Assembly (NCBI GenBank): GCA_046726415.1
Contig: JBKPAK010000226.1
Coordinates: 1 to 37,894 of the forward strand
Reading direction: 5' to 3'
DNA: 37,894 nucleotides
Origin: Candidatus Methylomirabilota bacterium
GTDB lineage: Bacteria; Methylomirabilota; Methylomirabilia; Rokubacteriales; CSP1-6
This document shows, piece after piece, positions 9,644 through 36,582 of this stretch (position 1 is its first letter; each line of letters begins with the position of its first letter). The position numbers and the translations under genes were made by a program. The notes beneath the pieces were generated by a model. It was not told the origin of the DNA. It did not search any database and was given only the letters and a program-made list of their open reading frames with translations.

Positions 9644-10459
9644 TCACGCCGGAGGATTCGGAACCGGACTGGGATCGACCGGCGCGATGTCGCCCATGTC
9701 GGGCTCGAGCTGCAGCGTATCGGCGATCTTGGTGTAGCTCGAGAACATCTGGGTCACCCCGATGACTTCCATCACTCCCCGCTCGCCGACTCCGAGCCGG
9801 CGCATCTCGCCGAGATGAAAGCGCGTGCCAAAGCCCGAGCGCGTGGTGAGGGACACGGCAAAGGCGAGGGCCTCCTTGAATCGCCGCTCCAGCGTGTTGT
9901 CGGCGAAGGCCCGTCGCACGGCCGCCCACAGATCGGCGGCGTAGCCCGCGTCGTGAGCCATCAGGCGTAGTGGCAGCGGCACCACGCCGCCATAGAACTC
10001 GCGCACTTCGGCGAAGAGCGCGCACACCTCGGACGGAGGGTCAGTTTCGTCTACGGCGGTCAGGAGCGGCGGGCCGCCGTCAGCGGCGAGCCCATCCGCG
10101 ACCACGTTGAGGGCATTGGTCATGCCCACTGTGAACGCCGCCTCGTACCACCGCGCATCGCCCGTCATCCCCTGCAGCTTCCCGGCTGCAGTGTGGGCCT
10201 TCACTCAGTACTCGCAGGCGTTGACCCCACTCACCGCAGCCGCCACCATCTCCTTCTCGGCCCGACTGAATTCACCGGGCATCGCCGCGCGCTTCATGGC
10301 GCGGCCGTGGGGGCCACCGAAGCTGGGATCCCAGGCCATCACGCGGCTCATGGCGGGGGGCACGGGAAAGTCGTAGTCGAACCACTGCTTGGAGAGCTCG
10401 AACAGCTTTCGGGTCTTTTCCGGATACTCCGATTCGCTTCGCAGCCTGACCGTTGGCAT
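9644..10459 (-). CDS. AhpD/carboxymuconolactone decarboxylase-family selenoprotein (CxxU), two CMD repeats; Sec TGA at 10207-10205 (codon 85)
   Basis: ORFs 10205..10528 and 9644..10204 are contiguous in one frame: KEMVAAAVSGVNAC-E-Y-TGA-V-K-A-H, the AhpD CxxCxxxH motif; SECIS-like hairpin downstream; SD GGAGGGA upstream of ATG 10459. Confidence 0.85.
10172..10191 (-). promoter_or_regulatory. Putative bacterial SECIS element of the AhpD/CMD gene
   Basis: mRNA: UGA, 13 nt, then CUGCAGC-CGGGAA-GCUGCAG (7-bp perfect stem, G at loop position 2). Confidence 0.75.
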
Positions 10460-10591
10460 GGCGTCCCTCCGCACGACGGCGACTGATTGCCGACGCGACT
10501 TTACACCCGCCCGGCCAACGGCACTCATCGATCGGTGACGCCGGAGCTCGCGTCTTGTCGGGTCATCCCGTACCGTGCCCCGCCGTGCCGG

Positions 10592-20823: not shown

Positions 20824-21603
20824 TCAGGCTTTGAGGCTCGCGAGCAGGCGTGGCACGGCATCCGGCCCCGATAGCAGTGCGGGCGCCGCGGTCGGGCCGG
20901 TGATCAGGAGCGCGGGCGATGTCACCTCGGCCGCGCGAGCAGCGACGGCAATGTCGCAAAGGCGACCCGTCACCAGACGCTCGCCAACCATTCCCGCGCG
21001 CTCCACCACGAGGGCGGGATCGGCGGGATCGCGACCGAGGGCAACCAACCGATTGGTAATTGTATCGAGCGCGCGCACGGCCATGTAGAAGATCAGCGTT
21101 CCGTCCAGGCGCGCGAGCACTTCCCAGTCGAGATCGAGGGGCGAATGTCCGCTCTGGTCCGTTCCGGTAGCGAGCACCACTAGCGACGAACGGCCGCGGG
21201 CCGTCAGGGAGATGCCGGCGAGCGCAGACGCCGCCGTCGCCGCGGTGATGCCCGGGATGACTTCGAAATCGAGGCCGGCCGCGCGTACGGTCTGGATTTC
21301 CTCGGCGAGGCGCCCGAACAGCGACGGATCGCCTCCCTTGAGTCGCACGACCGATCCGTGACGCCGAGCAGACGTCACCAGGAGCGCGTTGATGGCGGCC
21401 TGAGGATAGCCGGCACCTCCCGGCGCCTTGCCGGCATCGATGACGCGCGCCCCGCCTCGTGTCTCGCCGAGTAGCTCACGCGGAATCAGTCGGTCGTGGA
21501 TGACCACCGCCGCCTCGCGGAGGCGGCGCAAGCCCTTGACGGTGATCAGCTCGGGATCGCCGGGGCCCGCTCCCACGAACGAGACCAACGGCGGCGGCCT
21601 CAC
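20824..21603 (-). CDS. cobA: Uroporphyrinogen-III C-methyltransferase
   Basis: VGAGPGDPELIT, VVRLKGGDP, FGR, PGITAA; GTGA overlap with nirA stop. Confidence 0.92.
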   Translation of the reverse strand: MRPPPLVSFVGAGPGDPELITVKGLRRLREAAVVIHDRLIPRELLGETRGGARVIDAGKAPGGAGYPQAAINALLVTSARRHGSVVRLKGGDPSLFGRLAEEIQTVRAAGLDFEVIPGITAATAASALAGISLTARGRSSLVVLATGTDQSGHSPLDLDWEVLARLDGTLIFYMAVRALDTITNRLVALGRDPADPALVVERAGMVGERLVTGRLCDIAVAARAAEVTSPALLITGPTAAPALLSGPDAVPRLLASLKA

Positions 21604-23105
21604 GACTCGGGATCCTTCCGCTCGCCGCGGGGGAGGAATCGGATCAACCGTTCGAGGACCGCCGGCAGCTCGTCGCACGGCATGTCCTCCAGGATGCGGA
21701 TGCCCGCGCGCGGATCCATCCCACCCCGTCCGCTCACGGAGACGTGCACGCCGTCGACGATCTTGCCGTTGACCTTGATCTTGCAGCCCTGCAGCCCGAT
21801 GTCAGCGGTGTGGTGGTTGCCGCAGGAGGCCGGGCAGCCGGACCAGCGCACACTGATCGGGCGCGTGCTGCCGATGCGCTGCTCCAGATCCCGGGCCAGG
21901 GCCATGGCGCGAGTTTTCGTGTCGATGAGGGCGAGATTGCAGAAGTCGGTACCCGTGCACGAGACCTGGCCGCGCATCACTTCCGACGGATTGTAGGGCA
22001 GCTCGCGCAGCAGCGGTTCCTGTGTGAGATCGCCCAACCGCGCGTCGGGCACGTGAGGGATGATCACGTTCTGCAGCGGTGTGACGCGCAGCTCCCCTTG
22101 CCCATAGATCTCCGAGAGCCGCGCCAGCTCGAAGAGCTGATCCGCGGTGACCCGACCCACGGGCGTCTTGAGGCCCACGTAGTTCAGCCCCCCCTGCTTC
22201 TGGCGGAAGATGCCGATGTGATCGGTCGTCCGCGGCAGGCGCGCCTCGCGGCCGGCGGACGGCAGCGGGCGCTTCAGTCGTTCCTCGAGCTCAGCCCGGA
22301 AGCGCGGCCCCCCCCACTCCTCGATCAGGAAGGCGAGCCTGGCTTTGCTGCGCGCCTCGCGTGGCCCGTGGTCCCGGTAGACGAGGGCGATGGTGGCGCA
22401 GACCTCGGCCGCCTCGTCCGGGAGGACGAACGCATCGAGCGGCGTGGCGAACGTCGGACCACCCGAGCCCTGCTTGCCGCCGACGGCCAGGTTGAACCCC
22501 GCCACGTCGCCGTCTGCGGTCGCGCGCACGGCAGGCGTCATGGAGATGTCTTGCGTCTCAGGGCCCGTACAGTTCTCGAGGCAGCCGGTGATGGTGACGT
22601 TGAACTTGCGCGGCAGGTTGGTGAAGGCCTTGTTGCCGAGAAAGATCTGCTGGAAGGCCGCCGCGATGGGAGCGGTCTCCACCAGCTCACGAGGGGTGAG
22701 GCCGGTGGCGGGACAGCCGACGATGCCGCGGATGTTGTCCATCCCTGTCTGGAGACTCGAGAGGCCGGCGGCATTCAGACGATCCACGACGCCGGGGACG
22801 TTCTCGATGGTCACCCAGCGGAGCTGCACCTGCTGGCGCGTGCTGATGTCGGCGATGTTGCGCCCGGACTCCCGCGTGATCTCGGCGAGCAGGCGCGCCT
22901 GGGCGGCGGTCACGATGCCGTTGGGCATGCGGATGCGCATCATGAAGTGACCGGGCGTGGGCCGGCGATGGAAGACGCCCACCCACTTCAACCGCTCCTT
23001 GTCGTCGTCAGCGATCGTCTTCCAGCCCTCGCGCGCGAAACGGATCAGATCCTCGGTGACGTCGAGGCCGTCGCGCGCAGCCTTGAGCGCTTCGATCTTG
23101 TTCAT
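21600..23105 (-). CDS. nirA: Ferredoxin-nitrite reductase (siroheme, 4Fe-4S)
   Basis: FMMRIRMPNG, TRQQVQLR, TNLPRKFN, CTGTDFC...SGCPASC; ATGA overlap with nitrate reductase. Confidence 0.92.
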   Translation of the reverse strand: MNKIEALKAARDGLDVTEDLIRFAREGWKTIADDDKERLKWVGVFHRRPTPGHFMMRIRMPNGIVTAAQARLLAEITRESGRNIADISTRQQVQLRWVTIENVPGVVDRLNAAGLSSLQTGMDNIRGIVGCPATGLTPRELVETAPIAAAFQQIFLGNKAFTNLPRKFNVTITGCLENCTGPETQDISMTPAVRATADGDVAGFNLAVGGKQGSGGPTFATPLDAFVLPDEAAEVCATIALVYRDHGPREARSKARLAFLIEEWGGPRFRAELEERLKRPLPSAGREARLPRTTDHIGIFRQKQGGLNYVGLKTPVGRVTADQLFELARLSEIYGQGELRVTPLQNVIIPHVPDARLGDLTQEPLLRELPYNPSEVMRGQVSCTGTDFCNLALIDTKTRAMALARDLEQRIGSTRPISVRWSGCPASCGNHHTADIGLQGCKIKVNGKIVDGVHVSVSGRGGMDPRAGIRILEDMPCDELPAVLERLIRFLPRGERKDPES

Positions 23106-25231
23106 CGCGGGATCTCCACGAGACGGCGGAGCCGCACCGCGCAGGCCTTCAGTTCTGGCTGCTTCGAGAGCGGATCGCGCGCGCTCAGCGTCAGGTTGTT
23201 GGCGCTCTTGTAGAAACCCAGCCGCCGGCCCCAGTGGAAGGGCAGGAAGCACATCCCCTCGCGGATGGCCGCACTCACCCGGCATTGCGCGACGACCTTC
23301 CCGCGCCGCGACACCACCTCCACGAAGTCGCCGTCTTGCAGTCCGGCCTGCGCGGCATCGCGCGCGTTCACCTCGAGTAGAGGCTCGGGTGTCCGCGCCG
23401 CCAGGGCCGGCGCCTTGCCCGTCCGGGTGAGGGTGTGCCAGTGGTCGCGCACCCGGCCGGTGGTGAGGGTCAGCGGGAACGTCGCATCCACGCGTTCCAC
23501 GGGTTCGTCGTGCTCGACGGCCACGAAGCGCGCCCGTCCGTCCGGGGTCGGAAACGCGCCGTCGGTATAGAGACGCTCCGTCCCGGGGTGACCGGGCGCC
23601 GGCACCGGCCACTGAAGCGGCCCCTCGCTGCTCAGACGCGCGTGGCTCAGGCCCGCGTAGTCGCAGGCCGTGCCGGCGGTGAGCGCCGCGAACTCGGAGA
23701 AGATGTCAGCGGTGCTCGCGTAGGGGAAGGCGTCCTTCCATCCCATCTCGTGCGCGAAGCGGGTGATGATCACGGCATCGGGCAGCGCCTCCCCTGGCGG
23801 TTCCGTGAGCTTCGGCAGGTACGTCAGGCGGCGCTCGGAGTTGGTCATGACGCCGTCCTTCTCGGGCCACTGGGCGGCGGGCAGGAGGACATCGGCGAAG
23901 CGGGTGGTCTCCGTCGGATGGTAGGCGTCCTGCACGATCACCAGTTCGGCCTGGCGGAGCGCCTTTTCCACCCGGTCGAGATCCGGCATGGAGGCGGCCG
24001 GGTTGGTGCAGATGATCCACACCGCGCGCACCTCGCCGGCGGCGAGCCCCTCGAAGATTTCCAGCGCCGACCGCCCGGGCTGCGGCGAGATGGTGTTCTC
24101 CGGCACGCCCCACGCGCCTTCGACGAGCGCGCGGGCCCGCGCGTCGGTGATGAGCCGGTAGCCGGGGAGCAGATGCGACAGGCCCCCGGTCTCTCGCCCG
24201 CCCATAGCGTTCGGCTGCCCGGTGAGAGAGAACGGTCCCGCTCCGGGTCGGCCGATCTGTCCGGTCGCCAGATGCAGGTTGATGATCGCGGTGTTCTTGT
24301 CGGTACCGACGTGGCTCTGGTTGACTCCCATGCTCCAGAGGCTCAGCGCGGCGCGGGCCACGCCGAACCGGCGCGCCGCCATGCGAATGGTCTCGGACGA
24401 AAGGCCGGTGATGGCCCCGGCGCGCTCCGGCGGATAGCGCTCGATCACCGCCTGCACCGCCTCCCACCCGGAGGTGTGCTCGTCGATGAAGCGCGCGTCG
24501 AGTCGGCCCTCCTGACAGAGCACGTGCAGCATGCCGTGGAGCAGCGCGATGTCCGATCCGGGCCGCAGGGCGAGATGCAGGTCGGCGATATCTGCGGTCT
24601 CCGTCCACCGGGGATCGGCGACCATGACGAAGACGTCGTCGGGCCGGGCGAGCTTGCGCCGCCGAATGCGCTTGAACGTGATGGGGTGGCAGTCGGCGGT
24701 GTTGGTGCCGATCAGGAAGAAGCAGTCTGACTGCTCGATGTCCGCGTAGGCGGCCGGCGGGCCGTCCGAGCCCAGGGAGCGCGCGTAGCCGGCCGCGGGC
24801 GAGGCCATGCAGAGCCGCGAGTTCGTGTCGAAGTTGTTGGTGCGCAGGAAGCCCTTGGCGAGTTTGGACGCGACGTAATACTCCTCTGTGAGGAGCTGGC
24901 CCGACGCGTAGAACGCCACCGCGTCGGGCCCGTGCGCGGCCGCGATCTCGCGAAGGCGCTCGGCAATGAAGCGAAGGGCGAGGTCCCACGGCACCTGCTC
25001 GAGGGGGGCGTCCCGCCGCGGCCGGATCTGCGGGACGCACAACCGATCGTCGGTCTTCAGCGTGGGTGGAAGGTGCACGGCCTTGGCGCAGACGTCGCCG
25101 AGGTTGGCCGGGTGGGTGGGGTCACCCTTCACCCTGGTCACCGCCCCCGCCTCGACCCTGACGACGAGGCCGCAGCCCACGCCGCAGTACGGGCACAGAG
25201 TCCGGTGCCAGACACCGTTCACCGTCGCCAC
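23102..25231 (-). CDS. narB: Assimilatory nitrate reductase catalytic subunit (NarB/NasA-type, Mo-bisPGD)
   Basis: CPYCGVGC...C-A-K, NFDTNSRLCM, SLTGQPNAMGGRE, TTGRVRDHWHT, DPLSKQPELK. Confidence 0.9.
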   Translation of the reverse strand: MATVNGVWHRTLCPYCGVGCGLVVRVEAGAVTRVKGDPTHPANLGDVCAKAVHLPPTLKTDDRLCVPQIRPRRDAPLEQVPWDLALRFIAERLREIAAAHGPDAVAFYASGQLLTEEYYVASKLAKGFLRTNNFDTNSRLCMASPAAGYARSLGSDGPPAAYADIEQSDCFFLIGTNTADCHPITFKRIRRRKLARPDDVFVMVADPRWTETADIADLHLALRPGSDIALLHGMLHVLCQEGRLDARFIDEHTSGWEAVQAVIERYPPERAGAITGLSSETIRMAARRFGVARAALSLWSMGVNQSHVGTDKNTAIINLHLATGQIGRPGAGPFSLTGQPNAMGGRETGGLSHLLPGYRLITDARARALVEGAWGVPENTISPQPGRSALEIFEGLAAGEVRAVWIICTNPAASMPDLDRVEKALRQAELVIVQDAYHPTETTRFADVLLPAAQWPEKDGVMTNSERRLTYLPKLTEPPGEALPDAVIITRFAHEMGWKDAFPYASTADIFSEFAALTAGTACDYAGLSHARLSSEGPLQWPVPAPGHPGTERLYTDGAFPTPDGRARFVAVEHDEPVERVDATFPLTLTTGRVRDHWHTLTRTGKAPALAARTPEPLLEVNARDAAQAGLQDGDFVEVVSRRGKVVAQCRVSAAIREGMCFLPFHWGRRLGFYKSANNLTLSARDPLSKQPELKACAVRLRRLVEIPR

Positions 25232-25234
25232 CGC

Positions 25235-26005
25235 TCACGCTCCGGCGTGCGCCCGCTCCTCGAGGAAGCCGAGGATCGAATCGCGAAGCCAGAAATAGTC
25301 TGGACGGGCGAGGATCTCTTCTCGCCGCCGCGGCCGCGGGAAGGGCACGTCGATGATCTCGCCGATCGTCGCCGCCGGACCGTTGGTCATCATGGCGATA
25401 CGGTCGGCCAGCAGGAGCGCCTCGTCGACGTCGTGGGTGACCATGATGACGGTCTTGCGCGTCTCCTCCCACAAGGTCATGAGCTGGTCCTGCAGCTCCA
25501 TGCGCGTCAGCGCATCGAGCAAGGAAAACGGCTCGTCGAGCAGGAGCAGGCGCGGCTGGAGGGCGAAGGCGCGGGCGATACCCACCCGTTGCTGCATCCC
25601 GGCCGACATCTCGCGCGGATAGCGATCACCCATCCCGGACAGGCCTACGGCGTCGAGATACGCGTCGGCCGGGGGAGCGCCGGCCACGCGGACCTGGTCG
25701 AGGGCGAGGCGGACGTTGTCGCGGATCGACATCCACGGCAAGAGCGTGGCCGACTGGAAGACGACGCCGCGATCGGTGCCAGGGCCATCGACTTCGCGCC
25801 CCCCGATGACCACGCCCCCGGTCGACGGCGTGTTGAGCCCCATCAGGATCGAGAGCACCGTGGTCTTCCCGCACCCGGAGTGGCCGAGCAGGCAGACGAA
25901 CTCCCCCTCGGCGACGTACAGGGTGAAGTCCCGGACAATGACCGCCGGGCCGGTGGGCGTGTCGTAGGTCTTGCCGAGCTGCGCGATCTCGACGAACGCC
26001 GCCAT
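25235..26005 (-). CDS. nrtD: Nitrate ABC transporter ATP-binding protein (NrtD-like)
   Basis: GHSGCGKT, DEPFSLLDALTR, THDVDEA, MMTNGPAATIG. Confidence 0.88.
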   Translation of the reverse strand: MAAFVEIAQLGKTYDTPTGPAVIVRDFTLYVAEGEFVCLLGHSGCGKTTVLSILMGLNTPSTGGVVIGGREVDGPGTDRGVVFQSATLLPWMSIRDNVRLALDQVRVAGAPPADAYLDAVGLSGMGDRYPREMSAGMQQRVGIARAFALQPRLLLLDEPFSLLDALTRMELQDQLMTLWEETRKTVIMVTHDVDEALLLADRIAMMTNGPAATIGEIIDVPFPRPRRREEILARPDYFWLRDSILGFLEERAHAGA

Positions 26006-26009
26006 CGAT

Positions 26010-26789
26010 TCAGCTCGCCCGGCGGCACGCGCGCAGGAACTCCACGATGCCCTGGCGCGCCTTCTGGTAGGCGGGCGTCAAGCTCATGTGGCGGCGTTCG
26101 CGAGGCCGCGGGAGGCCGACCTCGATCGGCGGTCCGAGCACGGCGCCGGGGCCTGGTGTCATCGGATAGATGCGGTCGGCGAGGAGAATCGCCTCGTCGA
26201 CGTCGTTGGTCACGAGGATCACCGTCGAGCGGCGCACGCCCCAGATCCGGAGCAACTCGTCCTGCAAGGTGGCCCGCGTGAGAGCGTCGAGGGCGCTGAA
26301 CGGCTCGTCCATGAGGAGCACCTTGGGCTCCATGGCCAGGCCGCGCGCCACCGCCACCCGCTGGCGCATCCCGCCCGAGAGCTCGCCGGGTCGCTTGCTC
26401 ACGGCGGGAGTGAGGTTGACGAGATCGATGAACTCCTTGGTCAGCGCCTGGCGTTCACGGGCCGGGCGCGAGGGGTTCACGGCATCGACGGCGAGGGCCA
26501 CGTTCTCGTAGACGGTCATCCAGGGCAACAGCGAGTACTGCTGGAAGACGATGCCGCGCTCGGGACCGGGTTCGACCACGCGCGCACCATCCAGGATGAT
26601 CTCGCCGGCATCGGGCGCGATGAGACCGCCGATGAGCGAGATCAGTGTGGTTTTGCCGGAGCCGGAGTAGCCGACGATGGCCACGAACTCGCCTGCCTCC
26701 AGGGTCAGCGTGGCCCCGCCCAGGACGCGCGTAGTGCCGCGCGGGGTGACGTAGGACTTCTCGACGGCCTTGACCTCGAGGTACGGCAT
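26010..26789 (-). CDS. nrtC: Nitrate ABC transporter ATP-binding protein (NrtC-like, no C-terminal NrtA-like domain)
   Basis: GYSGSGKT, LSGGMRQR, DEPFSALDALTR, TNDVDEA. Confidence 0.85.
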   Translation of the reverse strand: MPYLEVKAVEKSYVTPRGTTRVLGGATLTLEAGEFVAIVGYSGSGKTTLISLIGGLIAPDAGEIILDGARVVEPGPERGIVFQQYSLLPWMTVYENVALAVDAVNPSRPARERQALTKEFIDLVNLTPAVSKRPGELSGGMRQRVAVARGLAMEPKVLLMDEPFSALDALTRATLQDELLRIWGVRRSTVILVTNDVDEAILLADRIYPMTPGPGAVLGPPIEVGLPRPRERRHMSLTPAYQKARQGIVEFLRACRRAS

Positions 26790-26793
26790 CGGA

Positions 26794-27564
26794 CTAGCCC
26801 GCCTTGATTCGCGCTTCGATGAAGCCCATCAGCCGGTCGAGCAGGAGACCGATGGCCCCGATCGTGATGACGCTCAGGATGATGTGGGAGTAGACGAGGC
26901 TGTTGTATTCCTGCCAGAGGAACCCGCCCACGCCCGGCGTTCCCGTGAGCATCTCGGCGGCGACGATGACGAGCCAGGCCAGCCCCAGTGACAGGCGGTA
27001 GCCCGTGAAGATGTAGGGGATCGTGGCGGGGACGATGATCTTGACCAGCATCTTCCAGCGGGAGAGCTTGAGCACGCGGCCGACGTTCAGATAGTCCTGG
27101 CTGATGCTGCGCACCCCCACCGCGGTGTTGATCACCGTCGGCCACATGGCGCAGAGGGCGATGGTGAACACTGCCGCCGGCTCCGACTTCTGGAAGATCA
27201 CCAGGCCCAGCGGCAGCCAGGCCAGCGGCGAGATGGGCCGCATGAACTGGACGATCGGATCGAAGGAGCGGTGAAAGGTCGCCGACAGGCCGAGCAAGAA
27301 ACCGATTGGAGTGCCGATGGCCAGGGCCAGCGCGAACCCCTTGGCCACCCGCACCAGCGAGTAGAAGGCGAGGCGGCCGATGCCCTGGTTCATCTCGCCA
27401 TCCTTGAAGAACGGCTCCAGGACGTAGCGACGCGATTCGCTCCATGTGCGCCATGGCGAGGGCAGATCAGGGGCGACGGTCTGACTGAGCAGGCTCCAGA
27501 CCAGAAGGACCCCGAGGCCGCCCAGGAGCGGGAGCACCATCTTCTTCAGCCCGTCCTGCGTCAT
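26794..27564 (-). CDS. nrtB: Nitrate ABC transporter permease
   Basis: RPISPLAWLP, WPTVINTAVGV, AWLVIVAAEML. Confidence 0.92.
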   Translation of the reverse strand: MTQDGLKKMVLPLLGGLGVLLVWSLLSQTVAPDLPSPWRTWSESRRYVLEPFFKDGEMNQGIGRLAFYSLVRVAKGFALALAIGTPIGFLLGLSATFHRSFDPIVQFMRPISPLAWLPLGLVIFQKSEPAAVFTIALCAMWPTVINTAVGVRSISQDYLNVGRVLKLSRWKMLVKIIVPATIPYIFTGYRLSLGLAWLVIVAAEMLTGTPGVGGFLWQEYNSLVYSHIILSVITIGAIGLLLDRLMGFIEARIKAG

Positions 27565-27573
27565 ACGCGCCTC

Positions 27574-28812
27574 CTAGGCCATCGAGTTGACGGGGAAACT
27601 CTTCGCGTACTTCTCCGGCTCGGCGGGATCGAAGGTCACGCCGTCCCAGAAGGTCTCCTTCTTCATGTCCTCGCGCGGCGCCTCGACCCCCGTCTCCTTG
27701 GCCACTTCGCGGAAGATGTCCGGACGGTGGACGCGGTCGACGATGCCCTTGTAGTCAGGGGGCTCCTTGACCATGCCCCAGCGCCGGAACTGGCTCAGCC
27801 ACCACACACCGTGGGATTTGAGCGGGAAATTGGTGTAGCGGTCGAAGAAGGTCATGTAGTACTTGTCCTTCTCCTTGCGGCCGTCGCCGTAGTCGATGTC
27901 GCCGAGGAGGCGGCCGAGGATGACCTCCTTGCTGGTGTTGATGTATTGGGGCTGGGAGACGACCTCGACCATCCGGGGGCGGTTCTCCAGCTTGTCGATC
28001 CACTGGCTCGCCTCCAGCACGGCGCGCATGACGGCCTTCACTGTCTTGGGGTTCTTCTGGGCGTAATCCTCCGTGAAGGCAAGCACCTTCTCGGGGTGGT
28101 CCTTCCACATCTGCTGGGTCGTGGTGGCGGTGAAGCCGATGCCGTCGGTGATGGCGCGGGCAGGCCAGGGCTCCCCCACGCAATAGCCGTCCATCTTACC
28201 CACCTTCATGTTGGCGACCATCTGAGGCGGTGGGATCGTGATGAGGGTCGAATCGCGGTCGGGATTGATCCCACCCGAGGCAAGCCAGTAGCGGATCCAC
28301 ATCGCGTGGGTGCCGGGCGGGTAGGTCATGGCGAACGTCATCGGCGAGCCCTTCGCCTTCGCCTCCATGACGAGCGGCTTGAGTTGCTGCGGCGTCTTTA
28401 CGCCCTTATCGAGAAGGGCCTTGGTGAGAGTGATCGCCTGCCCGTTCCGGTTCAGATAGAACGGGATGATCATGGGCTTCACTGGCGCGCCGAGAAGTCC
28501 CATCGTCGATGCGTAGGGCATGCCCAGCAGCATGTGGGTGGCCTGGTTCTCGCCGAGGGAGAGGCGGTCGCGAATGACGGCCCACGACGCTTCCTTCGAA
28601 ATCGTCGCTTCGATTCCGTACTTTTTGAACAGGCCCAGATCGTGGGCCATCACGATCGAGGAACAGTCCGTGAGCGCGATGATGCCGACGCGGACCTTCG
28701 GGCTCTCGGGCGCGTCCGAGGCGTAGGCGCCTCCGACCCAGCCGGCCGGCAGCCCGGCCAGCAGGGCGCCGGCTCCCGCCGACGCGATGAACTCACGGCG
28801 ATTGACGTTCAT
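27574..28812 (-). CDS. nrtA: Nitrate ABC transporter substrate-binding protein (NrtA/CmpA family), Tat signal
   Basis: NRREF twin-arginine motif, GIIALTD, NGQAIT, MTYPPGTH, PPPQMVAN, CVGEPW, HPEK. Confidence 0.92.
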   Translation of the reverse strand: MNVNRREFIASAGAGALLAGLPAGWVGGAYASDAPESPKVRVGIIALTDCSSIVMAHDLGLFKKYGIEATISKEASWAVIRDRLSLGENQATHMLLGMPYASTMGLLGAPVKPMIIPFYLNRNGQAITLTKALLDKGVKTPQQLKPLVMEAKAKGSPMTFAMTYPPGTHAMWIRYWLASGGINPDRDSTLITIPPPQMVANMKVGKMDGYCVGEPWPARAITDGIGFTATTTQQMWKDHPEKVLAFTEDYAQKNPKTVKAVMRAVLEASQWIDKLENRPRMVEVVSQPQYINTSKEVILGRLLGDIDYGDGRKEKDKYYMTFFDRYTNFPLKSHGVWWLSQFRRWGMVKEPPDYKGIVDRVHRPDIFREVAKETGVEAPREDMKKETFWDGVTFDPAEPEKYAKSFPVNSMA

Positions 28813-28831
28813 GGTCCGGATCTCCCTTGGG

Positions 28832-28870
28832 AAGAAAAACGGTGCCGCCCTCTCGAGTGAGGGCCGCACC
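28832..28870 (-). terminator. Intrinsic terminator (attenuator) in the nrtA 5' leader
   Basis: mRNA GGUGC-G-GCCCUC-ACUCGA-GAGGGC-G-GCACC followed by GUUUUUCUU, between promoter and nrtA start. Confidence 0.8.
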
Positions 28871-28875
28871 TTTGC
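28866..28875 (-). promoter_or_regulatory. Candidate ANTAR-binding hairpin overlapping the terminator 5' arm
   Basis: GC-AAAGGU-GC: hexaloop with A at position 1 and G at position 4; only a 2-bp stem. Confidence 0.55.
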
Positions 28876-28917
28876 CTTGCTGGAGCCTGACGTGAAGCTC
28901 CGCTCGTCCGCGAAAAC

Positions 28918-28933
28918 TGCAGTCGCCGTGCCA
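28918..28933 (-). promoter_or_regulatory. Sigma54 (-24/-12) promoter of the nitrate assimilation operon
   Basis: TGGCAC-GGCGA-CTGCA versus consensus TGGCAC-N5-TTGCW, with correct GG-N10-GC spacing. Confidence 0.8.
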
Positions 28934-29162
28934 CGGGGCAGCGAGGAGCCACGCGCGCCGATCTGCACGCGTCGTGTCCTTCAAGCTTGCGACGCGATCA
29001 ACCCGATGGGACAAGTGGACGGGAACAGCCTCGTCGGAAGGCAACGCCGAGGGCGGCTGCTGCTTGGGCGAGCAGTCGACCGGAGGTCGCCCGGGGGTTG
29101 GGCGCCCCTTCGAGGCATTCGTTGTCGATTTACAATTCGGGGCAGACGCCAGGAGGGAAACG

Positions 29163-29957
29163 ATGACCGTGATGCAGGTGCATGCGCCGAAGGATGTCGA
29201 AGCGCGAGTGCTCGAGGCGATCGGACGGGCCATGGGCCGCTTCTCGATGCTCCGTGCGGGCGACCGCGTGGCGGTAGGGGTCTCCGGAGGCAAAGACAGC
29301 CTCTGCCTGCTGCACGCGCTGACCGCCTACCGCAAGCGAGCCCCCTTCGCCTTCGACCTCCTGGCGGTCACCGTCGAGCAAGGCAAGTTCACGGCCCCCG
29401 TTCGCACCTTGGAGGCACAGATCAGGCGCATCGGCGTGGAGTGGGTGCTCCGCGACGAGGCGGCCACCTTACGCCTGGTCCGCGACGGCGTGGCGCACGG
29501 CTGCGATGTGTGCAGCCGTCACCGCCGCCGCGCGCTCTACCAGCTTGCCGACGAGCAAGGCTGCTCGGTGCTCGCGCTTGGCCACACCGCCGACGACTGT
29601 GCAGAGTCGCTCTTGCGCAACATCCTCTTCAACGGACGCATCGCGTCCCTGCCACCCGTCGCCGCGTCCCGCAAGGGGACCCTGCGTCTCATTCGCCCGC
29701 TCGTCTTCGCGAGCGAGGCGCTGACCCTCGCCTACGTCCGGTCGTGCGGCCTGGTGCCTGTCGGCTGCGTGTGCGGCGAGAAGGAGAGCATCAGGCGCGA
29801 GATTCGGTCGCTTCTGGATGAGCTGCGGCGGCGCCACCCGGACGTGGCGGAGTCGATTACCGCGGCGTTGGGCAACGTCAACCCGTACACGCTTTTCGAT
29901 CTCAAGCTCTCCAAGGAGGGTGCCGACGCGACGCCCGCCTTGGCGCTCGACGGCTGA
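29163..29957 (+). CDS. ttcA: tRNA 2-thiocytidine biosynthesis TtcA family protein
   Basis: PP-loop SGGKDS, CDVC, LGHTADD, LIRPL, CVC; SD AGGAGG. Confidence 0.8.
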   Translation: MTVMQVHAPKDVEARVLEAIGRAMGRFSMLRAGDRVAVGVSGGKDSLCLLHALTAYRKRAPFAFDLLAVTVEQGKFTAPVRTLEAQIRRIGVEWVLRDEAATLRLVRDGVAHGCDVCSRHRRRALYQLADEQGCSVLALGHTADDCAESLLRNILFNGRIASLPPVAASRKGTLRLIRPLVFASEALTLAYVRSCGLVPVGCVCGEKESIRREIRSLLDELRRRHPDVAESITAALGNVNPYTLFDLKLSKEGADATPALALDG

Positions 29958-30541
29958 GTCTCGTCCAGAGCCAGGATCTCCTCGGCCACCGCGATCATCG
30001 GGCGCCGGCTGTTCATGGCGGCCGTCCGGATTCGCCGGAACGCCTCCGCCTCGCCGAGCCGTTCGCGCTCCATGAGACGGCCCTTGGCACGCTCGATCAC
30101 CTTCCGGTCTTCGAGAGCGCGCCGCAACCGTCGCACCTCCTGGAAGCGGGCCACCGCGAGATCGAGAGTGGGCGCGAGCTGTCCGCGGCGCAACGGCTTG
30201 AGGAGGAACGCCATCACTCCGGCTCTGAGGGCGCGGGCCATCAGAGCGGGGCTGGCCTGGCGAGCAAAAAGCACGACAGGGCAGCCCACCGTGGCGGTGG
30301 CCTGCGCGGCCATGGCCATGGTGTCCCCGTCGGGAAGCTGCGCGGACACGATGGCGACATCCGGCTTGCTCTCTCGCAGCAACGCAAGAGCGCCCTCGCA
30401 GTGAGTGCCCTCTGCCGCCGTTCGACCGCCCGCGCTGAGGATTTCGTCTCCGAGCGTGGCGCGGGAGCGGTCGTCGTCGTCCAGGACGGCCACTCGCCAG
30501 CGCGGTGCTGTCATCCTGTGAGTGTTCGGGTTGGCATCCAT
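29732..30541 (-). CDS. nasT: ANTAR-domain antiterminator with pseudo-receiver domain (NasT-like); start may be 30514
   Basis: Receiver fold (VAVLDDD, PDVAIVS, FLLKP) followed by ANTAR motif LEDRKVIERAKGRLM...EAEAFRRIRTAAMNSRRPM. Confidence 0.8.
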   Translation of the reverse strand: MDANPNTHRMTAPRWRVAVLDDDDRSRATLGDEILSAGGRTAAEGTHCEGALALLRESKPDVAIVSAQLPDGDTMAMAAQATATVGCPVVLFARQASPALMARALRAGVMAFLLKPLRRGQLAPTLDLAVARFQEVRRLRRALEDRKVIERAKGRLMERERLGEAEAFRRIRTAAMNSRRPMIAVAEEILALDETQPSSAKAGVASAPSLESLRSKSVYGLTLPNAAVIDSATSGWRRRSSSRSDRISRLMLSFSPHTQPTGTRPHDRT

Positions 30542-30688
30542 GCCGTCCACGATCGACCGCGGCGCGCGCCGCGTCAAATCACAAGTCTGCGACACCGCCG
30601 CGATGGCAACCTCGGTGGCGTAAACAGACGTGCCCCTCCCCACCGTCTAACCGGGCACAGGCAGACTCATAGCTGGGAGGCACACATT

Positions 30689-31215: not shown

Positions 31216-31277
31216 AGTTCTCTCCGTGCGCCAGGCGTACGCTACCCTGAAGGCCATCGACCCAGGAGGAGTGACGA

Positions 31278-32774
31278 ATGGCGTCGCGATTCGCCGGCAC
31301 GGTCAATGCGCCGGATTTCCCGCCCGATCTGGACTGGCTGAACGCAGCACGGCCGCTGAGCCTGCGCGACCTGCGCGGCAAGCTGGTGCTGCTCGAGTTC
31401 TGGACCTTCTGCTGAATTAACTGCATTCACAACCTTCCGCGGTTGCGGAGGCTCGAGCGGAAGTGGAGCCGGGAGCTGGCCGTGATAGGAGTGCACTCGC
31501 CCAAGTTCATCGGCGAGCGCCTCACGGAGAGCGTGCAGCAGGCCATCCAGCGCTTGAACGTCGGCCACCCGGTGGTCAACGATTGCGACTTCCGCGTCTG
31601 GAAGGCGTACGCCGCCCGCGCCTGGCCCACGCTGATGTTCATCGATCCCCAGGGCAAGGTCATCGGCAAGCACGAGGGCGAGTTCCCCCTGGAGCCCTTC
31701 GACCAGCTCATCGCTGAGATGGTCGCGGAATTCGACGCCAGCGCTCTGCTCGATCGAAGGCCGCTCGACCTCAGCGCCGACTGTCCGGTGGGAGTGACCC
31801 CGCTGCTGTTTCCGGGAAAGCTCATCGCCGACGAGGCCACCGGCCACCTTATCATCAGCGACACGGGCCACCATCGGCTGATCGTGGCCGACCTGAACGG
31901 ACAGGTGCGGCAGGTCGTCGGCAGCGGCGCCCAGGGCTTCGACGATGGACCGGCTGAAGTCGCGACGTTCTCGCACCCGCAAGGACTGGCCCTCGACGGC
32001 GCCACGCTCTACGTGGCCGACACCGAAAATCACGCGTTGCGCGCCGTGGATCTCACCGCCGGCACCGTCCTCACCGTGGCAGGGACGGGCGAGCAGCTCA
32101 TGGGGCCGCGGGTCGGTGGGCCTGCGATACAGACGGCTCTCAGCTCGCCCTGGGATCTCGCCCTCCTGGATGGGACGCTCTACGTGGCCATGGCCGGGAC
32201 CCATCAGCTCTGGTCGATGGAGTTGGGCAGCGGATTCGTCGTGCCCCATACGGGAACGGGGCGCGAGGATCTCGTCGACGGTCCTCTGGGCGAGGCCTCG
32301 ATGAATCAGCCGAGCGGTCTGGCCACCGACGGAATGCGGCTCTACGTGGCGGACAGCGAGGCGAGCGCCATTCGCGTGGTGGAGCCAAGAACGGGCGGCA
32401 CCATCCGCACCATTGTCGGCGAGGGGCTCTTCGAGTTCGGCGACCGTGACGGGCGCGGCCCCGCCGAGGTGCGACTTCAGCACCCGGTCGGGGTCACGTG
32501 GCACGACGGCGTGGTGCACGTGGCGGACACGTACAACCACAAGATCAAGCGCCTCGATCCGGTCACCGCCGAGTGCCGGAGCTGGCTTGGTCGCGGGGAG
32601 CCCGGTCTGGAAGACGGCGATGCCGACGCGATCCGCTTCAGCGAGCCGAGTGGCTTGGCCGTGGCGGCCGGGCGTCTCTACATCGCCGACACCAACAACC
32701 ACGCCGTCCGCGTGGCCGATCTGGCCACAGGTGCGGTGACGACACTCCAGCTCTCAGGACTGCCTCTCCATTGA
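31278..32774 (+). CDS. Thioredoxin-like + NHL-repeat selenoprotein (NHLRC2/SOQ1-like); Sec TGA at 31413-31415 (codon 46)
   Basis: SD AGGAGG and ATG 31278 give [22 protein letters not shown]...[22 protein letters not shown], in frame with ORF 31443..32774 ([13 protein letters not shown], repeated YVADT-N-H NHL blades). Confidence 0.88.
31434..31451 (+). promoter_or_regulatory. Putative bacterial SECIS element of the Trx-NHL gene
   Basis: UGA, 18 nt, then CUUCCGC-GGUU-GCGGAGG (7-bp stem with one G-U pair, GG-starting loop). Confidence 0.75.
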
Positions 32775-32777
32775 ACC

Positions 32778-33101
32778 GTGGTTCCCGACGAGCCCGAATA
32801 CCTCTACCTCACGACCACGGGCCGCTGGACGGGCCGACCGCGCGAGATCGAAATCTGGTTCACCACACGCGATGACCGCTACTACATCGTGGCCGAGCAC
32901 GGGGAGACGTCGAGCTGGGTGCGCAACATCCGGCACGACGCGCGGGTCACGTTTCGGGTCGGTGTCCGGGCGTTCGCGGGCCGCGCCCGTGTGGTCGACG
33001 CGCCGTCAGAGCGCGAGCTGGCCGCCGACGTCCGCCGCCGCTCCGCGCGCAAGTACGGCTGGGGGGACGGCTTGGTGGTCGAGCTGACCAGCGTAGAATA
33101 G
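32778..33101 (+). CDS. Deazaflavin-dependent nitroreductase-like (split beta-barrel) oxidoreductase
   Basis: LTTTGRWTGRPREIEIWF, SSWVRNIRHDARV. Confidence 0.82.
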   Translation: MVPDEPEYLYLTTTGRWTGRPREIEIWFTTRDDRYYIVAEHGETSSWVRNIRHDARVTFRVGVRAFAGRARVVDAPSERELAADVRRRSARKYGWGDGLVVELTSVE

Positions 33102-33120: not shown

Positions 33121-34248
33121 ATGCCGAGGACATTTCTCGAACCTGCATTCCAGGTGGAGCATCTTTCCATCCTGGATAGCGACGGCAATCTCGACGCCGC
33201 TCTCGAACCAGACATTTCCCCCGCCACCCTGCAGGCGATGTATCGAGCCATGCTGCGGGGCCGGCGGCTCGACGAGCGGATGGTGCGCCTGCAGCGCCAA
33301 GGGCGCATCGGCACCTTCGCGCCCATCAAGGGGCAGGAGGCCTCCCAGATCGGCAGCGTGTTCACCCTGCACCCGGCAGATTGGATGGTGCCGTCGTTCC
33401 GCGAGACGGCGGCCATGCTCCATCGCGGGTGGTCGATCGAGAAGATCCTCAGCTTCTTCGCTGGCTACCTCGAGGGCGGCCAGCCAGCCCCGGAGCAACA
33501 CGATCTTCCCGTGGCCATCCCCGTGGCCACTCAGCTCCCGCACGCCGTCGGCCTCGCCTACGCCGCGCAGTATCGCGGCGACGACGCGGTGGTCATGGCC
33601 TATTTCGGAGACGGCGCCACCTCGGAGGGCGATTTCCACGAGGCCGCCAACTTCGCCGGCGTGTGGCATGTGCCCCTCGTGCTCGTCTGCCAGAACAACC
33701 AGTGGGCGATCTCCGTGCCCCTCAAGAAGCAGACGCACTCGCGCACCATCGCCCAGAAAGCGCTCGCCTACGGCTTCCCCGGAATCCAGGTGGACGGCAA
33801 CGACGTGCTCGCCGTGTATGCGGCCAGTCGCGAGGCCGTCGAGCGCGCCCGCGCCGGCGACGGACCGACCTTGATCGAGTGCGTGACCTACCGCTTGTCC
33901 ATGCACACCACGGCCGACGATCCCACCAAGTATCGGGCCGAGGAAGAAGTGAAGGCGTGGGAGCGCAAGGATCCTCTGGCTCGCTTCGGCGCGTACCTCC
34001 AGAAGCGCAATCTCCTCGAGGAAGGTCTGGACGAGGCGATCGATGCTGAGATCGCTGCCGCCGTGCAGCGCTTCGAGGCCATGCCCGCTCCCGATCCGCT
34101 CACCATGTTCGACCATGCGTACGCGGAGCTGCCCTTCCACCTGACCGAGCAACGCCGCGAAGTGGCCGCGCGCGAGCACCCGGTCACCGATCCGGAGGGC
34201 GCTCACCCTCCGGCCCCGATGCGCGGTCAGCGGCTGACCCGGCGATGA
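33121..34248 (+). CDS. pdhA: Pyruvate/2-oxoacid dehydrogenase E1 alpha
   Basis: LQRQGRIG, GQEA, TPP motif GDGATSEGDF...NN, HTTADDP. Confidence 0.9.
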   Translation: MPRTFLEPAFQVEHLSILDSDGNLDAALEPDISPATLQAMYRAMLRGRRLDERMVRLQRQGRIGTFAPIKGQEASQIGSVFTLHPADWMVPSFRETAAMLHRGWSIEKILSFFAGYLEGGQPAPEQHDLPVAIPVATQLPHAVGLAYAAQYRGDDAVVMAYFGDGATSEGDFHEAANFAGVWHVPLVLVCQNNQWAISVPLKKQTHSRTIAQKALAYGFPGIQVDGNDVLAVYAASREAVERARAGDGPTLIECVTYRLSMHTTADDPTKYRAEEEVKAWERKDPLARFGAYLQKRNLLEEGLDEAIDAEIAAAVQRFEAMPAPDPLTMFDHAYAELPFHLTEQRREVAAREHPVTDPEGAHPPAPMRGQRLTRR

Positions 34249-34279
34249 TCGGCGCTCTCCCCATCGCCCACTGACCTCC

Positions 34280-35260
34280 ATGGCCAGGCTCAACATGGTC
34301 AAGGCCTTGAACCTGGCGTTGATGCAGGAGATGGAACGCGACCGCGACATCGTGATCATCGGGGAGGATGTCGGCGTCGACGGCGGCGTCTTCCGGGTCA
34401 CTGACGATTTGCAGCGGACGTTCGGGAGCCAGCGCGTCATCGACAGCCCGCTGGCGGAAGCCGCCATCGTGGGCGCCTCGGTGGGCATGGCCCTCTATGG
34501 CCTCAAGCCCATCTGCGAGATCCAGTTTTCCGGCTTCGCCTTCCAGTGCTTTCACCAGATTGAGAACCACGCCGCGCGCTATCGCATGCGCACCCAGGGG
34601 CGCTTCCACTGCGCCATGGTCGTCCGCATGCCATACGGAGGTGGCGTGCGCGCCCTCGAGCACCATTCGGAGTCCGAGGAACAGTTTTACGCGCACATCC
34701 CCGGGCTCAAGATGGTGATCCCCTCGGGGCCGAGAGTCGCTCGGGCGCTGCTCGTCTCCGCCATGCGCGACCCTGATCCCGTCATCTTCTTCGAGGCCAA
34801 GGCCCTCTATCACGCCGCCCGCGAGGACGTGCCGGATGAGGTGGAGTCGCTGCCGCTCGGCCAGGCGCAGTTGGTGCGCGAGGGACATGACCTCACGCTC
34901 ATCGCCTACGGCGCGATGCTGCGGGTGGCGCGGGAGGTCGCGGAGACGCTGAGGAAGGACGATGGCGTGGAGGCCGAGATCATCGATCTCCTCACCATTT
35001 CGCCACTCGACCGCGAGACGATTGGCGCCTCTGTCAGCAAGACGGGGCGGGCCGTCATCATCCACGAGGCGCCGCGGAGCTTTGGGCCCGGGGCGGAAAT
35101 CGCGGCGAGCATCATGGAGCGCTGCTTCCTGTCCCTGGAGGCGCCCATCAAGAGGGTGACGGCCTACGACGTGCCCTTCGTGGGCTTCGCGCGCGAGCGG
35201 GCCAATGTGCCGGACGTGCCCCGCGCCCTCGCGGCCGCCCGTGAGACGCTGGCCTTCTGA
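34280..35260 (+). CDS. pdhB: Pyruvate/2-oxoacid dehydrogenase E1 beta
   Basis: GEDVGVDGGVFR, DSPLAE, EIQF, ALEHHSES, DPVIFFE. Confidence 0.9.
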   Translation: MARLNMVKALNLALMQEMERDRDIVIIGEDVGVDGGVFRVTDDLQRTFGSQRVIDSPLAEAAIVGASVGMALYGLKPICEIQFSGFAFQCFHQIENHAARYRMRTQGRFHCAMVVRMPYGGGVRALEHHSESEEQFYAHIPGLKMVIPSGPRVARALLVSAMRDPDPVIFFEAKALYHAAREDVPDEVESLPLGQAQLVREGHDLTLIAYGAMLRVAREVAETLRKDDGVEAEIIDLLTISPLDRETIGASVSKTGRAVIIHEAPRSFGPGAEIAASIMERCFLSLEAPIKRVTAYDVPFVGFARERANVPDVPRALAAARETLAF

Positions 35261-36582
35261 TGCCGCGCCCATTCGCCCTGCCCGACCTCGGTGAGGGACT
35301 CGCCGAGGCCGAGATCGTCAAGGTGCTGGTGAAGGAGGGCGACGTCATCCGCGAGGATGCGCCCCTGCTCGAGGTGGAGACAGACAAGGCGCAGGTGGAG
35401 ATCCCCTCGCCGCTCAGCGGGCGCGTGCTCAAGATCCACGTCCAGCCGCATCAGACGGTGCGGGTCGGAGAAGTCCTGGTGACCTTCGCCGATGCCGCCG
35501 ACACGCCGGCATCCTCCCCAGCGCTCGCGATCCCACCCGCCGCGCGCCCGGCGTCCGAGGGACGCGATGGCGGCGTCCAGGCCGTGGAGCGAGCGCCGCG
35601 CCGGACCGGGCCCGTGCCAGCCACACCGGCCACCCGCCGGTTGGCCCGCGAGCTCGGGGTCGACCTGCGCGAGGTTCAGGGATCGGGGCCGGGTGGGCGC
35701 GTCATGGACGATGATGTGCGGAGCGCGGCGAGCCTACGCACCGAGGAGCGCCACCCGCCGGACCCCGCCCCTGCCCCGATCCTCACGGCCGTCTCGGGAA
35801 GGGCCGAGCCGTCGATGCCGCCGCGGCCGCTTACCCCGGCCGGCCTCGAGCCCCCGCCGCTGCCACGCTTCGAGCAGTGGGGCCCGATCGAGCGCCAGCC
35901 GCTCTCCCACTTGCGCCGCACGATCGCCGAGCGCATGACGCTCGCGGCGACGCTCATCCCGCATGTCACGCACTTCGACCGCGCCGACATCACCGAGCTG
36001 GACGCCATCATCACGCGCAATCTGGAGTCGGCGCGCGCGCGCGGCGTGGCCCTCACCTTGACGAGCTTTCTTCTCAAGGCGGTGGCGTTAGCGTTGCAGG
36101 AGCATCCGCAGTTCAACGCCAGCCTCGACAGTACGGCTGGCGAAGTGATCGTCAAGCGCTACGTTCACCTCGGCGTCGCGGTGGCCACCGAGCGAGGGTT
36201 GATCGTGCCCGTCCTCCGCGACGTCAATCGGAAGCCCTTGCTCGAACTGGCGCGCGAGCTGGGAGCCCTGGCCGCGCGGGTTCGCGAGGGCAAGGCGACG
36301 CTCGACGATCTACGCGGAGGGACGTTCACGATCACGAACATTGGGTCCCTGGGTGGCACCGGGGCCATTCCAATCATCAACTACCCCGAGGTCGCGATTC
36401 TCGGCGTGGCCCGTGGCCGCCTGGAGCCGGTCGTGCGCGAGGGCCAGATCGTTCCGCGCATGCTGTTGCCGCTTTCGCTGACCTTCGACCATCGGGTGGC
36501 CGATGGCGCCGACGGCGCCCGGCTGGCCTCCGCCATCATCCGGCGCCTCGAGCGCCCGGAAGAGCTGCTGCTCGACCTGTGA
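35260..36582 (+). CDS. pdhC: Dihydrolipoamide acyltransferase E2 (single lipoyl domain)
   Basis: Lipoyl site ETDKA, E3-binding ATRRLARELGVDL, catalytic DHRVADG. Confidence 0.92.
   Translation: MPRPFALPDLGEGLAEAEIVKVLVKEGDVIREDAPLLEVETDKAQVEIPSPLSGRVLKIHVQPHQTVRVGEVLVTFADAADTPASSPALAIPPAARPASEGRDGGVQAVERAPRRTGPVPATPATRRLARELGVDLREVQGSGPGGRVMDDDVRSAASLRTEERHPPDPAPAPILTAVSGRAEPSMPPRPLTPAGLEPPPLPRFEQWGPIERQPLSHLRRTIAERMTLAATLIPHVTHFDRADITELDAIITRNLESARARGVALTLTSFLLKAVALALQEHPQFNASLDSTAGEVIVKRYVHLGVAVATERGLIVPVLRDVNRKPLLELARELGALAARVREGKATLDDLRGGTFTITNIGSLGGTGAIPIINYPEVAILGVARGRLEPVVREGQIVPRMLLPLSLTFDHRVADGADGARLASAIIRRLERPEELLLDL

Follow-up and report, generated by a model that had tools for sequence, protein, structure and literature searches.

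A predicted selenocysteine form of the NHLRC2/SOQ1 thioredoxin-NHL family in a Methylomirabilota bacterium

NHLRC2 is essential in mammals and is mutated in FINCA disease, and its biochemical function is unsettled. Natural substitution by selenocysteine (Sec) marks catalytic redox cysteines, and UxxC variants of the thioredoxin (Trx) fold are the commonest kind of bacterial selenoprotein. Human NHLRC2 (6GC1, 6G7W) and the lumenal region of Arabidopsis SOQ1 (7DJJ, 7DJK) each join a Trx-like domain, carrying a C-C-I-N-C motif, to a six-bladed NHL β-propeller. In SOQ1, C431 and C434 form a redox pair (Em −274 mV) whose electrons go to a Cys pair of a C-terminal domain (CTD) (bioRxiv 2024.11.01.621559; also bioRxiv 2021.03.16.435614), and the former preprint proposes that the CTD is a methionine sulfoxide reductase. 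Neither NHLRC2 nor SOQ1-Trx reduced insulin, as reported in bioRxiv 2024.11.01.621559 and PMC6107167; the latter, a structural paper, takes the failed assay as an argument against thiol-disulfide exchange by NHLRC2.

The window is the whole stretch of DNA that we analysed, 37,894 nt (contig JBKPAK010000226.1) from a soil bacterium of the Candidatus Methylomirabilota. A first-pass annotation of this DNA had proposed that a strong Shine-Dalgarno sequence and an ATG at 31278 open a Trx-like N terminus, which is broken by a single TGA and continues in frame into an NHL propeller ORF. These elements are all present, as listed here with window coordinates:

31264..31269, + strand: Shine-Dalgarno-like AGGAGG, 8 nt 5′ of the ATG at 31278-31280 (sequence)
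31278..32774, + strand: read-through gene, 498 aa, with a Trx-like (TlpA/AhpC-TSA type) domain and a six-bladed NHL β-propeller (sequence, Pfam, structure model)
31278..31739, + strand: Trx-like domain, about residues 1-154, with C45-U46-I-N-C49, W116-P117 and R92 (PF00578/PF13905/PF08534; alignment to 7DJJ; DSSP of the model)
31413..31415, + strand: in-frame UGA, inferred Sec46 (sequence, homologue alignment)
31434..31451, + strand: putative bacterial SECIS hairpin, 7-bp stem with a GGUU loop at 31441-31444 (folding, comparison, bSECIS model constraints)
31443..32774, + strand: shortened standard-code ORF, TTG start, 443 aa, without the redox motif (ORF list)
31794..32750, + strand: NHL β-propeller, about residues 173-491, with E456 (PF01436, alignment, structure superposition)

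The TGA at codon 46 is the only internal one in frame, and the frame then stays open to the terminal TGA at 32772-32774. Reading TGA as Sec (U) gives 498 residues that include C45-U46-I-N-C49; the longest standard-code ORF begins at the TTG at 31443, 3′ of this motif. The codon is covered by contigs of three DNA runs from separate studies (X1, X2, X5; the window may derive from one of them), and no alternative letter is listed there. Because all three keep the TGA, it is not an assembly error, which settles an early concern about sequencing error. An RNA run (X20) yielded two 151-nt contigs, both within the propeller region and off the TGA codon.

Pfam models place AhpC-TSA/Thioredoxin_8/Redoxin at the N terminus, followed by NHL repeats. 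Over residues 9-495 the top matches among solved structures are SOQ1 (7DJJ, E 2e-120, 42% identity) and NHLRC2 (6GC1, E 2e-104, 39% identity), which share both domains with the window protein along its whole length. An AlphaFold2 model with Cys put at position 46 (pLDDT 92) superposes on 7DJK with a TM score of 0.94 and on 6GC1 with 0.92. By alignment, U46 falls on the second Cys of CCINC, i.e. the N-terminal Cys of the CxxC (C431 in SOQ1, C90 in NHLRC2), so the motif becomes C-U-I-N-C, just as the first-pass annotation had it. The residues at the Trx-propeller interface of SOQ1, R478 and E859, correspond to R92 and E456, neither of which varies in alignment A2. Full-length homology, domain order, the motif and the interface residues all fit, and on alignment and model the window gene is a predicted Sec form of the NHLRC2/SOQ1 Trx-NHL family. 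In contrast to SOQ1 and NHLRC2, the chain ends after the propeller, with no C-terminal nDsbD-like Cys-pair domain, no HAD domain and no membrane segment. Only 45 residues precede the Sec and no hydrophobic signal stretch is visible by eye, so the protein is probably cytoplasmic. A more distant relative is the C-terminal Trx domain of Mycobacterium DipZ (2HYX, 5CYY; E 2e-21), which belongs to the same xxINC-type Trx subfamily but lacks a propeller.

To follow the Sec codon across homologues, we collected 98 loci, 18 from 61 relatives and the best 80 of 503 from GTDB genomes, which is not a random sample. Leaving out seven loci without a readable motif and one duplicate, 83 full-length fusion genes and seven short stand-alone redoxins were compared. 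The alternation of TGA with TGC that had been suggested as a check was found: the fusion genes have TGA at the site in 44 cases and TGC or TGT in 39, with nothing else, and the short redoxins have six TGA and one TGC. TGA forms occur in Rokubacteria, NC10, Dehalococcoidia/SAR202, other Chloroflexota, Fervidibacter and one member of the Armatimonadota. A main clade of 40 Sec genes comprises Rokubacteria, Dehalococcoidia/SAR202 and Fervidibacter; as the loci are related, with 28 of these 40 on one Chloroflexota branch, locus counts overstate independence. In a survey of the phylum, a full-length match was found in 38 of 251 genomes, and a TGA occurs somewhere in 27 of the 39 matched rows, its position being verified in a minority of them only. 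Residues on either side of the UGA are conserved among homologues, and Cys49 is invariant. At position −1 relative to Sec, Cys is present in all 40 main-clade genes, compared to Gly in 20 of 39 Cys genes; Gly is also found there in one Sec fusion (L085) and in the six stand-alone Sec redoxins.

The first-pass annotation also pointed to a stem-loop with a GG-starting loop 18 nt after the UGA. Stem, spacing and loop are indeed there: 18 nt separate the UGA from a 7-bp stem (31434-31440/31445-31451), which is capped by a GGUU tetraloop beginning 25 nt after the UGA. The leading G, however, is peculiar to the window gene (A in 38 of 40 main-clade genes); what the loop conserves is a G in second and a U in fourth position. 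Folding near 31413-31460 likewise gave a mixed answer, in that the hairpin forms at −10.8 kcal/mol but is within the chance range when taken alone (z −0.84; 35 of 200 shuffles fold equally well), and longer folding windows prefer other structures. Given this, the case for the hairpin rests on comparison.

Here the expectation of a SECIS element just 3′ of the UGA is well supported. A core of CCGC-xGxU-GCGG is kept at the same offset in 40/40 main-clade Sec genes and 6/6 short Sec redoxins, and is seen in 0/39 Cys genes and in none of the four Sec fusions outside the main clade (L085, L092, L115, L120), whose hairpins are weaker and different. In Sec genes the synonymous sites of the stem are frozen over a GC range of 41-74%; in Cys genes they vary freely. 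Codon +8 is CCG in 40/40, codon +10 is TTG in 39/39 Leu codons and codon +11 is CGG in 40/40, against in-gene backgrounds of 0.42, 0.17 and 0.35. Among 39 distinct rows 97.8% of cells are paired (a level reached by none of 500 shuffles; slid controls ≤70%), figures that are inflated by relatedness of the rows and by defining the structure on those same rows. Compensatory changes are seen in 16 cells altered on both sides, with U-A, C-G and G-C as outer pairs. The window hairpin (loop of 4 nt with G in its first two positions, stem of 7 bp, spacing 25 nt, −10.8 kcal/mol) also lies within the limits of the bSECIS model as given in PMC13188914 (loop 3-9 nt, stem 4-16 bp, G in the first two loop positions, spacing 16-37 nt, MFE ≤ −7.5 kcal/mol).

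The genome, which is 98% complete, carries the Sec machinery that the first-pass annotation had named (selA, selB, selC, selD). The genes selA (591.9 bits) and selB (374.2 bits) and the tRNA-Sec (71 bits) lie together on contig C313, and selD (335.6 bits) has an in-frame TGA of its own; all score over cut-off. Of about 1930 long coding-like ORFs in the genome, 1251 end in TGA, and the genetic code is therefore standard. The closest named homologues of the window protein come from Ca. Rokubacteria (71-73%). A heuristic genome scan returned 288 TGA candidates, 114 with a redox-like motif, and about 40 of the 90 listed ones, counted by eye, resemble known selenoprotein families (Prx-like, UGSC, GrdB/PrdB-like, AhpD, DsbA, SelW, OsmC, TlpA). 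Checked individually, the OsmC-like candidate passes NF041052; a candidate on contig C257 proved to be a false positive, a glycoside-hydrolase fragment. Sec use is thus routine in this genome, and the selenoproteome is very large. Among the 43 other genomes with a Sec gene, 37 have selB over cut-off, compared to 32 of the 39 with a Cys gene; since most Cys-gene genomes carry it too, selB presence does not discriminate. At least one of selB, selA and tRNA-Sec was found in 42 of the 43; five of the six without selB show selA or tRNA-Sec, and one MAG (L045) shows none.

With the machinery present, TGA alternating with TGC/TGT and the hairpin confined to TGA genes, we put the probability that the UGA at codon 46 is recoded as Sec at about 0.95, in agreement with the 498-aa selenoprotein originally predicted. 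A pseudogene or a sequencing error would explain the stop itself and nothing else; the same TGA in 44 loci of four phyla with intact frames, its retention in contigs of three separate studies and the lack of TAA or TAG at the site in all 83 loci leave that explanation with almost no probability. UGA-to-Cys decoding occurs in a few bacteria, and the homologous residue is Cys, so the codon might be read by a special tRNA, or as Trp or Gly through a changed code. The standard code, the complete Sec system and the canonical SECIS all speak against such decoding, which we regard as highly improbable. The UGA might also be mostly a true stop, yielding a 45-aa peptide, with restart ten codons on producing a redox-dead propeller, perhaps as an alternative product under selenium scarcity. 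All 40 main-clade genes have a potential start, TTG or GTG, at codon +10, and 103 of the best 120 database matches are called in this way. But this codon belongs to the hairpin, with letters in the loop and in the 3′ arm of the stem, exactly where the G[G/U] loop rule of PMC13188914 demands them, which explains why gene callers find an invariant TTG/GTG to use as a start. It has no preceding Shine-Dalgarno sequence, and the cut would fall inside the Trx fold, between residues that are conserved on both sides of the UGA. These data make restart very unlikely.

Sec recoding together with a redox role for U46 is, from comparative evidence, highly probable. By the standard bacterial mechanism, SelB with Sec-tRNA(Sec) would bind the hairpin 25 nt past the UGA, placing Sec at codon 46. 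Alignment and model put Sec46 in the attacking N-terminal position of the CxxC, at the cleft between Trx domain and propeller. That nature substitutes Sec here independently picks out the second Cys of CCINC as catalytic, in agreement with C431 of SOQ1. Extending SOQ1 biochemistry to the window protein, the selenolate would attack a disulfide or similar oxidised sulfur of a substrate in the cleft, Cys49 would resolve the mixed selenenyl-sulfide, and a cytoplasmic reductant would regenerate the enzyme. Electrons would then pass to an external, propeller-selected substrate and not to an internal relay. An external acceptor is probable given that the Cys-pair CTD which SOQ1 reduces is missing from the Sec forms: this domain is present in 33 of 39 Cys genes versus 1 of 44 Sec genes (L085, from the Armatimonadota), an anticorrelation that rests on three sampled Sec lineages. 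As many bacterial homologues lack a CTD, an architecture described as a common, recognised subgroup in PMC6107167, CTD loss is not specific to Sec. A stand-alone CTD partner was sought and not found, a CTD profile (run without a positive control) giving no match in the six frames of the genome at E ≤ 10. Long C-terminal extensions of L025 and L045 were dismissed as fusions, being read-through into unrelated or frameshifted sequence.

Whether such an enzyme would act on disulfides is less certain than the recoding. By analogy with SOQ1, selective disulfide-reductase chemistry seems reasonably likely for the window protein. Alternatively, Sec46 might react directly with a small oxidant, as it would if the protein reduced peroxides or sulfoxides or sensed redox state, possibly through a vicinal Cys45-Sec46 bond, with Sec doing the job of the SOQ1 CTD. 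The Cys at −1 throughout the main clade, where half of the Cys genes have Gly, would suit this scheme; so would the loss of the CTD, which carries the methionine sulfoxide reductase activity proposed for SOQ1, and the lack of insulin reduction reported for the eukaryotic relatives. On the other hand, Cys49 is invariant, the protein matches a dithiol reductase in CxxC geometry and in the position of the cis-Pro, and Gly stands at −1 in L085 and the six stand-alone Sec redoxins. We consider direct reaction with an oxidant rather unlikely.

Trees of the family (a quick one of 82 rows and a careful one of 40 chosen rows without the motif codons) require three Sec/Cys changes, and the careful tree rejects a single Sec clade (p-AU 5e-51). 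As the trees are unrooted, they do not give the order of gains and losses. The outgroup redoxins have the same UGA and hairpin, and for this reason part of the family may descend from a Sec-containing ancestor. One such redoxin occurs in the same genome (L040/L125; G000:C8, TGA near 23096; relatives L034-L038, L041). It reads G-U-I-N-C, with UGA position and core hairpin as in the fusion gene, but differs from the window protein in lacking a propeller, in its signal-peptide-like N terminus, which suggests that it is probably exported, and in forming a separate branch of the Trx-domain tree. In both loci scanned it lies upstream of a histidine kinase. The relative L038 has TGC at the Sec site with a near-intact hairpin, which suggests a recent Sec-to-Cys reversion. 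Origin of the fusion gene by domain swap from a stand-alone Sec redoxin was rejected, as the fusion Trx domains group together apart from the short proteins (quick tree, 130 columns).

Pipelines had been predicted to truncate the gene, and this is what we see. Among the best 120 database proteins, 103 begin after residue 46, i.e. past the UGA, 17 are full-length CC forms and none has U; the database protein from the identical locus begins at residue 69, without the redox motif. About a hundred 90%-identity protein clusters are thus mis-annotated as propeller-only, under labels such as YncE, YvrE and 'alkyl hydroperoxide reductase'. Full-text literature searches found no published Sec form of the NHLRC2/SOQ1 family. 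NHL is absent from the main text of PMC13188914 (2026) as far as available, including its Table 1 of 119 prokaryotic selenoprotein families, and from the accessible portions of PMC9312934, PMC1976440, PMC2398784, PMC12013277 and PMC13326102; likewise, the UINC/UVNC motif is absent from the accessible supplements of PMC2398784, PMC5029168 and PMC12013277. Catalogued Trx-fold UxxC selenoproteins are Prx-like (PF00578), thiol-disulfide isomerase-like (cd02966/PF13905), Redoxin (PF08534) and ResA-like WAxxUGC (NF041054). They share with the window protein the Sec at the N-terminal CxxC position, a TlpA/AhpC-TSA-type fold and a SECIS in the coding region, but their listed representatives have other motifs and no propeller. 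The window protein differs from them in motif, in not being single-domain and in HMM score, passing no NCBIfam cut-off (23.8 bits for NF041054, cut-off 300). Against these sources, the Sec genes are apparently unpublished as a family; BSepDB may carry them under a generic name, and UBA1141, one of the genomes among the analysed loci, ranks in its top ten.

The window gene is, in this sense, a Sec variant of a known family made by a textbook recoding mechanism. The broader proposal, that of an unpublished selenoprotein family in at least four phyla, with Sec gained or lost at least three times and a main clade that works without the CTD relay, we advance tentatively, at a little under even odds. 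Sec forms without the CTD imply an activity that does not depend on it, and if the proposal is true, the Trx-NHL core of NHLRC2/SOQ1 would work as an enzyme by itself, using the equivalent of NHLRC2 Cys90 on a substrate from outside. The proposal would also offer a simple bacterial route to the NHLRC2 biochemical function behind FINCA disease.

We scanned 149 ORFs at 15 loci for conserved neighbours. There is no conserved operon in the six Rokubacteria loci among them, and no neighbour conserved across lineages points to a substrate. Dehalococcoidia loci share a dienelactone hydrolase gene upstream and prmC/prfA downstream of the Sec gene, a pattern suggestive of lineage synteny. In a single case, one Chloroflexota genome, a HAD-family hydrolase gene lies directly upstream (L088:1961-2926), echoing the HAD fusion of plant SOQ1. 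In the window, a nitrate/nitrite assimilation-type cluster occupies 21600-30643 on the minus strand (ANTAR response regulator, NMT1-like ABC transporter, nitrite/sulfite reductase), and a siroheme synthesis gene lies close by. The Sec gene is followed by an F420-dependent oxidoreductase gene (32778-33101) and a 2-oxoacid dehydrogenase E1/E2 operon (33121-36582). All of these are ordinary genes, and in most relatives they are not beside the Sec gene.

A second selenoprotein candidate in the window (9644-10528, minus strand) consists of two ORFs joined through a TGA at 10205-10207 into a 294-aa AhpD/CMD-type protein with C-E-Y-U (CxxU). A 7-bp hairpin with a loop starting GG follows, and CxxU AhpD-like selenoproteins are a catalogued kind. 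Elsewhere in the genome, an MBL-fold (GloB/persulfide-dioxygenase-like) gene (L126; G000:C235, minus strand, TGA near 13199) has an in-frame TGA after a GCASYLFG-type motif. No PF00753 row stands in Table 1 of PMC13188914 in its accessible form, and a literature search gave nothing relevant for this gene. The TGA recurs at the same codon in all 20 of the best loci from 61 genomes (L126, L127-L145), which share a hairpin with a compensatory change in L141; weaker paralogues are mostly without the stop. From these sequence patterns, the MBL-fold gene is possibly another uncatalogued selenoprotein family.
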